A DNA stretch of 64,000 nt from an uncultured Desulfobacterales bacterium (GCA_964573805.1 CAZNKP010000020.1:75647-139646), one strand, 5' to 3'. Shown: positions 7,759-11,878, counted from the first letter of the stretch. Numbers and translations are program-made. Notes: a model not told the origin generated them from the sequence alone.

Positions 7759-10497
7759 CTAATTACTTTCCCCTGAGCCTGCCTTTTGAGATGCCCTTTG
7801 GGCATTTGATGTTGACAATCTTGTCATATGCAAGGGGATTTTGGGGCTCCATTCAGTCCAATCATCCTCTGGTTCATCATAAAGGATAAAATGGGTGCCG
7901 CTTGATACGATTTCCCCCTTTTTTTCATCTTCTGGAGTTGCAAATGCAATTCCGCCTGCCATTATAGCTTCTACAGACTCTGTCCTTACTTTTACTCCAG
8001 AAAAGAGCCCTGCTTTTATTTTAACACCGCTCACGTTCCAAAATTTGCTCCCTTGTCTTACCAAAGGTCTGTAAGGCTCAAAGATGTTTAAATGAATCCA
8101 TACCTTACGGGAGTCTGGAGAAAGTTCGTATCCCAGGACCCTGCCAACCCTTACCTGTTTATAATATACAGGGCAGCCCCTTTTCAGTGAGCCCAAGGTA
8201 TTTGCCTCCACAATGACATGCAGGCCCTTATCCATGTAGGGTACTGCTGGAGGGGAATCCAGTCCTACGAGATGTCTGACTGGAGGTCCTTGGGCTGGCA
8301 GTACTGCTATATATGGTCCTGTGACAACTGTTTGAATATTTCTAATACCGCCAAGCCCAAACTCTGGTCCAACAACCCATACCTTGGTATTGGCAGTAAA
8401 AAGGGAGCTATAACGGCGATCAACCAAGGCAGTGACACGTACCGCCTTCATATTGTTCTCGAATTGTACATCTTTTACAAATCCAATCTTTACTCCTTGA
8501 TAACGTAGCTTAGAGTTTGTTTCCAGGTCTTTAGACGAGGCGAATCGTATTGTAATAGGCACATAATCAGCATTTTGAGCACTTTCTCTGTCAGGGAAGA
8601 GCCTGAATGTATGCCATTCTTTGACTTTTTTCCCCTTCCCTGCATTAATAAAACTTATTGCCCCCATTACAATAGAGGCCAAGGGGGAAGTCCTCATCTT
8701 GAATCCGCTTCTGATGCTTCCTTTCAATTCCAAACCGCTTGACAAAAAGAAACGGGACGCAGTAGTGATAAGATCGAGGTGGTTTTTCTGGATAAAGGCA
8801 TTTATCACAATTTTGTCTTTTTTGCTGTCCAGTTTGACCCCTGTTATTTCACCGACTTGTACCTTTTTGTAATAAACTGGACTGCCAGATATGACTGAAA
8901 CAGGTTCTTCGGTTTCAAGCTGGACAAAGATCCCTCCTGGCTTAAGATCAGGCACGTGTTTTATGGCATCGGCGTAACTGTCATAGAGTCTAAACCTGCG
9001 CCAGGGTTTTGCTTTTTTCAACTTCCTCTTGTAATAGCGATGGGGATAATCAAAGGCTATTCCTCCTGCCAGGATAGCCTTTAGGGAGTCGGTGCTGACG
9101 CTCACTGCCGCTGGTGTTACTTTCAGGTTAAGACCGCTATAGTTCCAAAAGACGCATTTGTTGTTTATGAGATGTTCAAACTCATCATAAATAATAAATA
9201 CGAGGTCAACGCTATTGTCCTTATTTAAGGTATACTTGGCTACTTCACCGACTTGAATATGCTTGAAAAGTACTGGCGCACCAGGGGCTAAGGCATGCAG
9301 ATCCGAGGCCACAAGCCGATAAAAGGTACCTTCTTTCAGTATCTCTTTTGAGTGGCTGCCCTGAACCGTGAACTCTCTGCGAGGCTTTCCACTGCCAGGA
9401 ACAAAGGTAATATATGGGCCAGAAACCAAAGTGCTAAGATTGCTAACTCCTCCAAGTCCGACCTTAGGTCTAATTATCCAAAACTTTGTCCCTTCATTGA
9501 GGGCAGACTCTGCCATTGGATCCATGAGAATTGTGGCCGTGACCTTGTATTTCCTGTCGTTTGGGTTAAGTTTCAGCTTCTTGACCCGTCCTACTTCGAT
9601 ACCTTGATAAATGACCTTTGTAAGTCCTTCTACTATGCTTTCACCATCAAATAACTTCAGGGTGATCTCTATGCCATACTGGGCATCTTCATAGTCTCTA
9701 TAAAGCCTAAATACCTCACCGTTTTTTGCCGGGGGCTGAGTCATCAGTTCTTGTGGTGTATAAAAGCTCACCCCGCCATTTATAAGACTGCTAAGAGACT
9801 GCATATGAAAGATGATTCCATTCAATCCTCCCTTTAATGTGATGCCACTGGCATTCCAAAATCTTGTTCCAGGTTTTACCAGGTTAGCGTATTCAGGCTC
9901 TATGTAACCATCAATAAGGATGCGTCCGTTTCCCTCCATCTTGTAACCCTGAATTGAACCCACCTTTATATCCTTATAATAAATGGCAGAACCTTTCTGA
10001 AGAGAATTAAGCGCATCTGTCTCAAGGCGTATATGTAGGCCAGGTGCATCTTCAGGGACCGGGGGAGGCTCATCGAGACCTACAAATTCTCGACACGGGA
10101 TTTTCGATTTTCCCGGCTGTACTGCAATATAGGAGCCTGTAAGAAGGGTTTCGAGACCCCGTACCTTGCCTGCAGAGATTTCTGGCCTTACAATCCAAAA
10201 TTTTACATCCTGGACAAGGCCTTTTTCTGCCTGTCTGCTGATGGCAATTTTCATGGATACAGTATCCAAGCCCTTATCTACTGTTATCTTTTTAACAATT
10301 CCTATGGGTAGACCCTTGAACATTACCTTTGTTTTGCCTGCTGTTACTCCTTCTGCACTGTGAAAATGTACTATTATGTCTATTGGTTTTTCCACAATAC
10401 TTTTGTAAAGGAGCCATATCCCGATGGAAAGGGCTACTGCAGGCAATATCCAGATGGGCGATATGCCCCTTTTCTTTTTTATCTTACTCTTTTCCAT
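7759..10497 (-). CDS. LetB/YebT-like intermembrane transport protein with seven MCE domains (PqiB/MlaD superfamily)
   Basis: 912 aa with an N-terminal TM (ISPIWILPAVALSIGIWLLY). Seven spaced MCE-type cores were counted by eye (..KGLPIGIVKKITV, ..YKDIKVGSIQGYKM, ..YQGIEVGRVKKLKL, ..FKHIQVGEVAKYTL, ..YKKVQVGEITGVKL, ..YQGVKIGFVKDVQF, ..YKQVRVGRVLGYEL). Confidence 0.85.
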   Translation of the reverse strand: MEKSKIKKKRGISPIWILPAVALSIGIWLLYKSIVEKPIDIIVHFHSAEGVTAGKTKVMFKGLPIGIVKKITVDKGLDTVSMKIAISRQAEKGLVQDVKFWIVRPEISAGKVRGLETLLTGSYIAVQPGKSKIPCREFVGLDEPPPVPEDAPGLHIRLETDALNSLQKGSAIYYKDIKVGSIQGYKMEGNGRILIDGYIEPEYANLVKPGTRFWNASGITLKGGLNGIIFHMQSLSSLINGGVSFYTPQELMTQPPAKNGEVFRLYRDYEDAQYGIEITLKLFDGESIVEGLTKVIYQGIEVGRVKKLKLNPNDRKYKVTATILMDPMAESALNEGTKFWIIRPKVGLGGVSNLSTLVSGPYITFVPGSGKPRREFTVQGSHSKEILKEGTFYRLVASDLHALAPGAPVLFKHIQVGEVAKYTLNKDNSVDLVFIIYDEFEHLINNKCVFWNYSGLNLKVTPAAVSVSTDSLKAILAGGIAFDYPHRYYKRKLKKAKPWRRFRLYDSYADAIKHVPDLKPGGIFVQLETEEPVSVISGSPVYYKKVQVGEITGVKLDSKKDKIVINAFIQKNHLDLITTASRFFLSSGLELKGSIRSGFKMRTSPLASIVMGAISFINAGKGKKVKEWHTFRLFPDRESAQNADYVPITIRFASSKDLETNSKLRYQGVKIGFVKDVQFENNMKAVRVTALVDRRYSSLFTANTKVWVVGPEFGLGGIRNIQTVVTGPYIAVLPAQGPPVRHLVGLDSPPAVPYMDKGLHVIVEANTLGSLKRGCPVYYKQVRVGRVLGYELSPDSRKVWIHLNIFEPYRPLVRQGSKFWNVSGVKIKAGLFSGVKVRTESVEAIMAGGIAFATPEDEKKGEIVSSGTHFILYDEPEDDWTEWSPKIPLHMTRLSTSNAQRASQKAGSGESN

Positions 10498-10506
10498 ATA
10501 CTTGCC

Positions 10507-11193
10507 TTAAAAATTGTCCTTCCTAACCTTTTGTCTATTTAGTAACGTTTTTGTGCTTCTTGGCAAATCCCAGATCAACCTGGTATCAAAGACCTCTGCT
10601 GCAAGCATGGTAGCAATGACTACCCCACAGAAAAAGGGGGCTGCGGGGGCTGCTGCAATGGTTGAAAGAAAACCAAAATCTACTAATGCGGTCAGCAGAG
10701 CTATTACAAAGATATCTAGCATGGACCAACGGCCTATGAATTTTATAAAACGAAACATCAACGTCTTGTGTTCGAGCCAGCTGTCAATTCTAAAATGTAT
10801 AGAAACGAGTATCATCATGATTCCTATAATCTTAAAAACCGGTACAAGGACACTGGCCACCAGAATAATAATGCCTATGCCGTATGAGCCTTCCTTAAAA
10901 AAATAGATTATACCATCCATGATGGTGGAGTATTCAGAAGCGCCCATGTATTCGACTTTCATAATCGGTAGCAGATTGGCAGGGAAAAGCAAAATAAGGG
11001 AGGTTATAACAAGGGCCCAAGAATGCACCAGACTGTTGGGTTTCCTCGGATGGACCGTACTTGCGCATCTCGGGCAATTCGCTGTTGAATTATCTGCTGG
11101 TATGTCTATGACCTTTTTGCACTCGTGGCATACCATAAGGCCTGCCTCAAGACCTGTTAGCGGCCTTTGGGTATTTGAGTTGCTACCCTTCAT
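10507..11193 (-). CDS. Half-size PqiA/LetA-family integral membrane protein (second half-gene)
   Basis: 228 aa. N-terminal zinc-ribbon CHEC-x14-CPRC followed by about 4 TM helices. Overlaps the upstream half-gene by 11 nt and lies 10 nt upstream of the MCE gene. Confidence 0.8.
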   Translation of the reverse strand: MKGSNSNTQRPLTGLEAGLMVCHECKKVIDIPADNSTANCPRCASTVHPRKPNSLVHSWALVITSLILLFPANLLPIMKVEYMGASEYSTIMDGIIYFFKEGSYGIGIIILVASVLVPVFKIIGIMMILVSIHFRIDSWLEHKTLMFRFIKFIGRWSMLDIFVIALLTALVDFGFLSTIAAAPAAPFFCGVVIATMLAAEVFDTRLIWDLPRSTKTLLNRQKVRKDNF

Positions 11194-11878
11194 TTGACAA
11201 CTCCTTTAATTTTGCCATGTCTGTTTTGTTCAATGCGGTCAGCCCCTTGTTATATCTCCTGCTTCCTAGCTGGGCATGGATCTTGTCCCAATAGTAGTTT
11301 TCGTCAAGAAACGATGAAGATAGCAAGGTTGCGCTTAGGAGCCCAATAAAGCAGAAAAACCCTATATCATATTCTATTTTGGCCATGTGAAGGAGTTTGA
11401 TAATTGTCACGAGTATACCGATCATGTAAACTTCAAGCATTCCCCATTCATCCAATCTTCTGTAGGCCTTAAACATGAATACAGTTGAAGCATCGCTCTT
11501 CCCTGTTTGGATTTGTAACGAGACAAGAAATAACAATAACAACTTTATGCAGGGAACAACAATACTTGTTACAAACACAGCAGTACCCGTAAACCAAAAT
11601 CCCGATTCCACCATTGCCTTTGCACTGGCGTAAATGCTTCCGCTACTTTCAAGGCCTAGAATGTCAAGGGTAAGGAGGGGTAAAAAGATGGCTGGAGGAA
11701 AAAGAAAAAGGCCTGTCAGGCTAAGGGCCATTGTCTTTTCCACACTGTTTTTTACAGGTGCAGCAAGGATGCAGCCACACCTTGGACATATAATTTTGTA
11801 ACCAGGTTTAGAGCGCGATTTTTCAAGAAGCAGGTCACAGTCTGGGCATACAACAATGTTTTTCATTGTTTTGGTCAT
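11183..11878 (-). CDS. Half-size PqiA/LetA-family integral membrane protein (first half-gene)
   Basis: 231 aa. N-terminal zinc-ribbon CPDC-x17-CPRC followed by about 4 TM helices. ATG start. Confidence 0.8.
   Translation of the reverse strand: MTKTMKNIVVCPDCDLLLEKSRSKPGYKIICPRCGCILAAPVKNSVEKTMALSLTGLFLFPPAIFLPLLTLDILGLESSGSIYASAKAMVESGFWFTGTAVFVTSIVVPCIKLLLLFLVSLQIQTGKSDASTVFMFKAYRRLDEWGMLEVYMIGILVTIIKLLHMAKIEYDIGFFCFIGLLSATLLSSSFLDENYYWDKIHAQLGSRRYNKGLTALNKTDMAKLKELSNEG

Follow-up and report, generated by a model that had tools for sequence, protein, structure and literature searches.

Do two half-size genes upstream of a gene for a large MCE protein encode a LetA in two pieces, and if so, is the division genuine, how may the halves work together and how did the arrangement arise? 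These questions are raised by three minus-strand genes in the window, which is the whole 64,000-nucleotide stretch of DNA analysed here: two half-size PqiA/LetA-module genes are followed by the gene of a 912-aa MCE protein (Table 1). The locus is a real and ordinary lipid-transport operon of an uncultured sulfate-reducer-type Desulfobacterota bacterium. With a probability of nearly nine in ten, it should encode a LetAB-type (YebST-type) MCE lipid-transport system with a LetA that originates from two translationally coupled genes.

Table 1. Features of the letAB region (positions counted from the first nucleotide of the window)
Feature	Position	Strand	Properties
CARDB-domain gene	6382-7671	+	Convergent; next gene downstream of letB
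letB	7759-10497	−	912 aa; N-terminal TM helix, seven tandem MCE domains and 53-aa tail
letA-C	10507-11193	−	228 aa; zinc ribbon and TM domain with GRWSMLDIF; PF04403
Shine-Dalgarno AAGGAG	11201-11206	−	Within the end of letA-N, 7 nt upstream of the letA-C ATG
letA-N	11183-11878	−	231 aa; zinc ribbon, then four-helix TM domain; PF04403
K+-channel-like membrane protein gene	11882-12580	−	232 aa; TLGYGD filter motif; Pfam Ion_trans_2, E = 1.2e-8
NhaA Na+/H+ antiporter gene (nhaA)	12577-13893	−	438 aa; Pfam Na_H_antiport_1, E = 1.6e-139

Two half genes, their junction and their neighbours

LetA/PqiA proteins were recognized by an N and a C module, each composed of a zinc ribbon CxxC-Xn-CxxC (n = 11 to 18) and a four-helix transmembrane (TM) domain. 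At this locus, one module is present per gene, accompanied by the GRWSM-psi-D-psi-F motif and six of the seven TMD-C network residues. The zinc ribbons are C11xxC14-x16-C31xxC34 in letA-N (n = 16) and C22xxC25-x14-C40xxC43 in letA-C (n = 14). Each half protein aligns over one four-helix LetA module; a crude Kyte-Doolittle scan, which undercounts the TM helices of E. coli LetA, indicated four hydrophobic segments in letA-N and five peaks, two of them contiguous, in letA-C. On the 403 positions of TIGR00155, letA-N covers positions 10 to 215 and letA-C 212 to 402, corresponding to the N and C modules, and their order in the locus is the canonical one, N then C. When scored against the individual modules of LetA (PDB 9n8w_A), letA-N reached 73 bits with the N and 50 bits with the C module, and letA-C 137 bits with the C and 36 bits with the N module. 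The LetA-LetB complex 9n8w also provided the best solved-structure matches of all three proteins. The first-pass annotation had described two overlapping genes of 231 and 228 aa, each with a zinc ribbon and about four TM helices, as the two modules of LetA/PqiA. Both genes are present at these positions, the Pfam count it had proposed gave one PF04403 (PqiA) domain in each (E = 1.6e-41 for letA-N and 8.7e-47 for letA-C), and the TIGR00155 mapping plus the 9n8w module scores bear out the assignment.

With the full-length models TIGR00155 and PRK15103, the halves scored 203 and 115 bits, both below the cut-off of 260 bits because each of them represents one half of the protein; since the family definition in PMC13017536 covers two-gene forms, such halves are still admissible as LetA/PqiA members. 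The scores against E. coli LetA and PqiA were 119.5 and 115.9 bits for letA-N and 168 and 186 bits for letA-C, respectively. The halves are thus about equally similar to both proteins, and the name LetA is derived from the architecture of the partner protein and not from the halves.

The two genes are read in different frames and share 11 nt, with the ATG of letA-C at 11193-11191 and the TAG of letA-N at 11185-11183. An overlap of this kind could arise when a fused gene acquires one indel, and fused versions are present in related Desulfobulbaceae; nevertheless, it is hardly conceivable that a frameshift, an assembly error or a recent pseudogenisation of one fused letA produced the two half genes. 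The junction at 11183-11193, which the first-pass annotation had marked as a possible frameshift, recurs unchanged in L002, an independent assembly of another run whose only SNP is located elsewhere, and the ATG of letA-C has a strong AAGGAG motif in front of it. Two intact genes are kept in at least 24 related loci of Desulfobacterota, the junctions of which lie between −20 and +111 nt, and the best 120 homologues of letA-N are all half-size or shorter (137 to 268 aa) with a single PqiA domain. The ten complete loci that combine a split LetA with a seven-MCE partner form a clade in 92% of the bootstraps of a concatenated LetA plus LetB tree; within this clade, the C halves are 60 to 82% identical to that of the window, and the junctions vary from a 20-nt overlap via 0 to an 8-nt gap. 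Moreover, in the N as well as the C half, functional residues are invariant or near-invariant among the relatives. The two-gene split is genuine, and a frameshift artefact was rejected on the basis of the junction in L002, the AAGGAG motif, the retention of the split in relatives and the residue conservation. Judged from its sequence, the junction is one of predicted translational coupling, with AAGGAG and an ATG that overlaps the stop.

The start of letB lies 9 nt past the letA-C stop. On the other side, the channel-like gene ends 3 nt ahead of letA-N, and nhaA overlaps the channel-like gene by 4 nt and is possibly the first gene of the letAB transcription unit. The channel-like gene adjoins letA-N, overlapping or at close distance, also in L003, L020, L024 and L038, and nhaA is kept at this position only in L003, the closest relative. 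Both genes are neighbours without a known role in the LetAB system that are possibly co-transcribed with it. A functional coupling of ion flux through the channel-like pore to the polar network of LetA, beyond synteny, is very improbable. In the region from 7400 to 14800, a promoter scan gave 15 candidates, compared to 14.6 expected from shuffled sequence, and a terminator scan 10, compared to 7.5. These counts are close to the shuffled expectation and therefore uninformative on the operon boundaries.

The seven-MCE partner protein

Pfam MlaD (PF02470) matched the 912-aa protein in seven stretches (E = 3.6e-72), and an iterated HMM search placed MCE domains at residues 43-148, 160-245, 281-383, 397-479, 529-627, 650-753 and 765-859, each with E < 1e-18. 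The only hydrophobic helix comprises residues 12 to 30. The C-terminal tail contains no helical needle and aligns with the C terminus of LetB. The best PDB matches were LetB/YebT in 9n8w_B (E = 4.8e-129) and 6v0c, extending over residues 4 to 888. Against E. coli LetB the protein scored 435 bits, compared to 154 bits against PqiB, with the latter alignment covering only residues 3 to 315. Seven MCE domains, a single TM anchor, a position directly downstream of letA and the lack of a PqiC/DUF330 gene are the features of LetB, whose number of tandem MCE domains has been specified as six to eight, with seven in the E. coli protein (PMC13017536). By these sequence features, the 912-aa protein is LetB-like. 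The first-pass annotation, which described a LetB-like partner of 912 aa containing seven MCE domains and a single TM helix at the N terminus, agrees with all of this: the HMMs give seven domains and not fewer, hydropathy gives the single helix, and the LetB and PqiB scores, the alignment to the LetB C terminus and the lack of a PqiB-type tail point to the same partner type.

Assignment to a PqiAB-type system, with a short MCE barrel and a helical needle docking on a PqiC lipoprotein, needs to consider that the NCBIfam PqiB equivalog NF008070 scored 614 bits with the 912-aa protein, above its cut-off of 525 bits, and that letA-C was slightly more similar to PqiA than to LetA. The NF008070 score is, however, a sum over four repeated stretches, and automatic annotation may mislabel such a LetB as PqiB. 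E. coli PqiB possesses three MCE domains, a C-terminal helical needle and a PqiC lipoprotein partner, all of which are absent here; PqiB aligns with the first three MCE domains of the 912-aa protein, and the 53-aa tail matches the LetB terminus and not the helical region of about 125 aa in PqiB. The gene following letB is the convergent CARDB-domain gene, so that no PqiC-like lipoprotein gene follows, as had been noted in the first-pass annotation. In 82 loci, a phmmer search with E. coli PqiC yielded no matches, a weak test in a family with about 13% identity, and Pfam analysis of a small number of genes located past the MCE gene in related loci returned LssY_C, Lcl_C or nothing, never a PqiC-type domain. 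A PqiAB-type system is highly improbable on these grounds, and the PqiABC classification was rejected on the basis of domain count, LetB versus PqiB scores and tail, despite an NF008070 score above the cut-off. PqiA shares the two-module architecture, and the halves are as similar to it as to LetA.

The LetAB-type assignment of the locus agrees with known classes. Type IV MCE proteins, which have seven tandem MCE domains and include Vibrio MAM-7, are distributed over the Delta-, Epsilon- and Gammaproteobacteria, and in most cases two PqiA domains are encoded upstream while a DUF330/PqiC gene is lacking (Isom et al. 2017, PMC5561183); the locus fits this class with no difference of substance. 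E. coli LetAB (9n8w/9n8x, LetB 6v0c) shares with it a LetB that combines seven MCE domains with a single TM helix at the N terminus and a short tail, the absence of a lipoprotein partner gene, the N-then-C modules directly upstream of letB, the cysteines, the motif and six of the seven network residues. Differences are that LetA of E. coli, a gammaproteobacterium, is a single chain of 427 aa, whereas 231 plus 228 aa are encoded here by overlapping genes in a member of the Desulfobacterota, that the linker is about 37 residues longer through the junction, and that D181 of E. coli LetA is replaced by His.

Predicted assembly of the two LetA halves

All eight metal-binding cysteines of LetA are matched in the two halves, and the GRWSM-x-D-x-F motif is complete (GRWSMLDIF at residues 154 to 162 of letA-C). 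The six network residues that are kept are K161 in letA-N, which aligns with LetA K178, and S114, K121, S157, D160 and T195 in letA-C; this distribution indicates that the polar network may span both proteins. The seventh position, D181 in E. coli LetA, is variable among relatives and Ala in E. coli PqiA. The cysteines, seven tabulated motif positions and the six network residues are invariant or near-invariant among 59 split and fused relatives.

Expression, heterodimer, hexamer and lipid transport are all assigned to this locus by homology to E. coli LetAB (9n8w, PMC13017536). In each half, a zinc ribbon on the cytoplasmic side would be combined with a four-helix TM domain, and the two halves may pair head to head into a pseudo-symmetric dimer, as the modules do within the single chain of a fused LetA. 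This dimer would sit beneath ring 1 of a LetB hexamer. From its full-length alignment to 9n8w_B and 6v0c, the 912-aa protein should form a homohexameric stack, the seven MCE rings of which would enclose a continuous hydrophobic tunnel spanning the periplasm. Phospholipids may pass between the inner membrane and the tunnel via a periplasmic pocket of the C module, possibly driven by proton movement along the conserved polar network, which would involve K161 of the N half and S114, K121, S157, D160 and T195 of the C half; in LetA, the network has been suggested as a possible proton path (PMC13017536).

An N/C heterodimer is supported by analogy: when LetA of E. coli was artificially divided into two ORFs, function was maintained, and both the C module and LetB were recovered in pull-downs with the N module (PMC13017536). 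Alternatively, the halves might homodimerise, or the C half might act with LetB by itself. Homology between the two modules, which are about 25% identical in E. coli (PMC13017536), makes homodimers sterically conceivable; the ancestor before the duplication must have been a homodimer, and the C half bears most of the polar network. This is nevertheless very unlikely, since each of the 24 complete split loci classified has the two genes next to each other with N before C, the halves are distinct orthologues of the N and C modules of E. coli LetA, K161 of the N half is invariant or near-invariant and in LetA is part of the network inside TMD-C, and the engineered E. coli split forms a heterodimer. 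The N/C heterodimer is thus probably also the form in which the LetA of the window is used.

Origin of the split and its meaning

The comparison with relatives proposed in the first-pass annotation showed that both forms occur: split and fused LetA are present, each with seven-MCE or four-MCE partners. In a concatenated LetA plus LetB neighbor-joining tree, calculated with a simple distance correction and rooted on the very long branch of the fused E. coli LetAB, the split clade was monophyletic in 92% of the bootstraps and nested among fused seven-MCE lineages in 78%, which would mean one change from fused to split. The tree of the LetA modules alone was poorly resolved, with 68% for the split clade and about 28% for the nesting, and it was the addition of LetB that raised the support to 92 and 78%, respectively. 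The sequence comparison leans toward a secondary fission of a fused LetA in this clade.

Gene fusion is generally more common than fission, which counts for the two-gene state being instead a retained ancestral arrangement of tandem duplicates that never fused. The tandem duplication must once have given two separate genes, and the four-MCE clades branching outside the seven-MCE group are mostly split. In about 20% of the bootstraps, the fused seven-MCE loci were monophyletic, so that the split clade can also be their sister. Set against the nesting of the split clade among fused seven-MCE lineages, with E. coli as the outgroup, a retained arrangement has a substantial chance that stays somewhat short of even, and a secondary fission is slightly favoured.

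The arrangement itself is not new but has been described and tested. LetA modules occur naturally fused or as two adjacent genes, for instance in P. aeruginosa (Nature 2026, PMC13017536), and seven-MCE proteins with two PqiA domains upstream are on record for Deltaproteobacteria (PMC5561183), so that the novelty implied in the first-pass annotation does not hold. The same applies to the implied use for dissecting the role of each half, for which the engineered E. coli split has already served (PMC13017536). Natural and engineered two-gene LetA show the same arrangement as the window, with one module per adjacent gene, and the P. aeruginosa form belongs to a different phylum-level lineage. P. 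aeruginosa PA3211-PA3214, considered as a natural split LetA, is actually an ABC-type MCE system with permease and ATPase.

Beyond annotation, the locus matters little. It is one more data point, which shows that split and fused LetA coexist within the Desulfobacterota, with both seven-MCE and four-MCE partners. The energy source and the transport direction of LetAB and PqiAB remain questions of the field, for which a natural two-gene LetA could help in principle.

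Gene and domain content of the locus

Three consecutive minus-strand open reading frames were found exactly where the first-pass annotation had placed them. letA-N and letA-C each contained one Pfam PqiA domain (E values of 1.6e-41 and 8.7e-47) and matched positions 10-215 and 212-402, respectively, of the 403-position full-length NCBIfam PqiA/YebS model, so that they represent the N and C modules in canonical order. The seven MCE domains proposed earlier for the letB product were recovered by Pfam (seven MlaD/MCE stretches, E 3.6e-72) and by an iterated HMM seeded with the first MCE domain and run against the protein itself (residues 43-148, 160-245, 281-383, 397-479, 529-627, 650-753, and 765-859). 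A hydropathy scan gave one TM segment in this protein (residues 12-30), four peaks in letA-N, and five in letA-C, two of them contiguous; since the scan is crude and undercounts the TM helices of E. coli LetA, the four-helix assignment of the halves rests mainly on alignment to the solved LetA modules. No PqiC-like gene follows letB, as already noted, because the next gene is convergent and encodes a CARDB-domain protein.

Positions of the genes discussed, in the window or in homologous loci (L numbers)
Feature	Locus	Coordinates	Strand	Remarks
letA-N, 231 aa	window	11878-11183	-	ORF list
letA-C, 228 aa	window	11193-10507	-	ORF list
letB, 912 aa	window	10497-7759	-	ORF list
CARDB gene, 429 aa	window	6382-7671	+	secreted protein, three CARDB domains; 87-nt intergenic to letB end
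K+-channel-like gene, 232 aa	window	11882-12580	-	TLGYGD filter motif, Ion_trans_2; ends 3 nt before letA-N
NhaA gene	window	12577-13893	-	overlaps channel-like gene by 4 nt
Outer-membrane efflux gene	window	14806-17250	-	unusually long, 814-aa ORF, called as 795 aa
Channel-like gene	L003 (closest relative)	4550-5236
Channel-like gene	L020	1760-2443
Channel-like gene	L024	3594-4325
Channel-like gene	L038	3-740
LssY_C-domain gene	L005	9373-10665	+	lipoprotein-like signal; co-oriented, 32-nt gap after MCE gene
Lcl_C-domain gene, small	L045	8275-8769	+	co-oriented, overlaps 4-MCE gene end by 4 nt

The best PDB matches came from entry 9n8w, the E. coli LetA-LetB complex, and comprised both of its chains. 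LetB aligned over residues 4-888 of the 912-aa protein, extreme C-terminus included (E 4.8e-129), whereas PqiB (5uvn) covered just its first three domains; direct comparison with E. coli K-12 gave 435 bits for LetB and 154 bits for PqiB. Instead of the helical needle region of E. coli PqiB, roughly 125 aa long, the protein ends in a 53-aa tail beyond MCE7. The NCBIfam PqiB equivalog model NF008070 scored 614 bits on it, above the 525-bit cut-off, since each repeated domain adds to the score, and automatic annotation would probably call the protein PqiB.

Against the modules in 9n8w, letA-N scored 73 bits with N and 50 bits with C, and letA-C strongly preferred C (137 versus 36 bits). The halves were equidistant from E. 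coli LetA and PqiA (119.5 and 115.9 bits for letA-N, 168 and 186 bits for letA-C), and the name LetA was therefore taken from the working definition in the LetA paper (PMC13017536), which requires a partner with 6 to 8 MCE domains.

The features published as essential were found in the halves. All eight metal-binding cysteines of LetA were conserved, and the GRWSMLDIF motif occupied residues 154-162 of letA-C. Of the polar-network residues, K161 is on letA-N and S114, K121, S157, D160, and T195 are on letA-C, so that the network spans both polypeptides; on sequence grounds, this speaks for an obligate N/C heterodimer. The one non-conserved network position is the equivalent of D181, a residue reported to be mutation-intolerant in E. 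coli LetA. It is His in letA-N (residue 164), in contrast to Ala in E. coli PqiA, and varies among relatives: His in 10/10 loci with a split LetA and seven MCE domains, but H, D, G, or K in fused seven-MCE loci.

Reality and origin of the split

The letA-C ATG (11193-11191) overlaps the end of letA-N (TAG, 11185-11183) and is preceded at 7 nt by AAGGAG (11206-11201), by its sequence a classic translational-coupling junction. An ENA metagenome contig matched the window exactly, and an independent Logan assembly from another run differed at a single position (a SNP at 10156) in 6.2 kb, with an identical junction. The best 120 database homologues of letA-N all had 137 to 268 aa and a single PqiA domain. 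Among 80 parsed loci from representative genomes, all Desulfobacterota, 24 complete loci encoded the N and C modules, in that order, by two distinct genes, which overlapped by up to 20 nt or lay as many as 111 nt apart. A frameshift artefact at 11183-11193, or a pseudogene, was therefore excluded for practical purposes.

As to whether the two-gene state is ancestral or a fission, all four combinations of LetA state and MCE count occurred among the 70 classified loci of Desulfobacterota: fused with seven MCE domains (36), split with seven (10), split with four (10), and fused with four (3); in 7 fused and 4 split loci, the MCE gene was truncated and the count thus unknown. A neighbor-joining tree of the LetA modules alone was poorly supported. 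In a concatenated LetA+LetB tree (1309 columns), a distance tree rooted on the very long E. coli branch, the split seven-MCE clade was monophyletic in 92% of bootstraps; 78% placed it inside the fused seven-MCE lineages, with a single change of state. This tree leans towards secondary fission in this lineage, but its root branch is very long and the four-MCE outgroups, nearer than E. coli, are mostly split, so that fission is only slightly favoured, at roughly 60:40 over a retained two-gene state. In the alignment, the junction maps to the cytoplasmic linker that connects TMD-N with the C-terminal zinc ribbon; this linker varies in length and is unusually long in this subclade.

Genomic surroundings and four-MCE relatives

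The channel-like/NhaA adjacency is the sole slightly unusual feature of the locus. In four relatives (L003, L020, L024, and L038), too, a channel-like gene immediately precedes the split pair, with spacings from an overlap to a 97-nt gap, compared to 3 nt in the window; about 9 loci of the split seven-MCE clade had sufficient upstream sequence, and 5 of them showed this adjacency. NhaA precedes the channel gene in the window and L003 only, and the arrangement may simply reflect synteny in a single clade. Scanning for promoters and terminators yielded no information on operon boundaries. The efflux protein has an OEP/TolC-like C-terminal part and a long, uncharacterised N-terminal extension. 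Its gene lies on the strand of the letAB cassette, with an ACR_tran RND transporter gene (L001 1-2669) further upstream. The LssY_C and Lcl_C genes of L005 and L045 are neither PqiC-like nor present in the window.

In many Desulfobacterota relatives, the partner of the PqiA/LetA modules is a four-domain MCE protein of about 530 to 575 aa, with the modules either split (L023, L027, L031, L033, L035, L037, L045, L052, L059, L065, L072, and L082) or fused (L034, L053, and L064); Pfam confirmed four stretches in L034, L035, and L037. These proteins fit neither the three domains of PqiB nor the six to eight of LetB in the rule of the LetA paper, and four stacked rings with no needle seem short for a structure that crosses the periplasm.

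Proposed working and relation to published systems

Judged from the homologous E. coli system, for which a structure and a mutational scan exist (PMC13017536), each half would comprise a cytoplasmic zinc ribbon and a four-helix TM domain, and the halves would pair head to head into a pseudo-symmetric dimer positioned under ring 1 of the LetB hexamer. Lipid would move between the membrane and the seven-ring tunnel by way of a periplasmic pocket in the C module. LetA modules are recorded in nature both as one fused chain and as a pair of neighbouring genes (PMC13017536). When E. coli LetA was divided into two ORFs, it remained functional and formed a heterodimer that binds LetB; the construct then served for crosslinking studies of the two halves (PMC13017536). 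Seven-MCE "type IV" proteins were described in Delta-, Epsilon-, and Gammaproteobacteria by Isom et al. 2017 (PMC5561183), their genes mostly preceded by two PqiA domains and lacking a DUF330/PqiC gene. The earlier reading of a seven-MCE LetB-like protein with a two-gene LetA was thus correct, its observation confirmed and its interpretation supported, but both elements had already been published, and the locus is an uncharacterised further example of a published arrangement.
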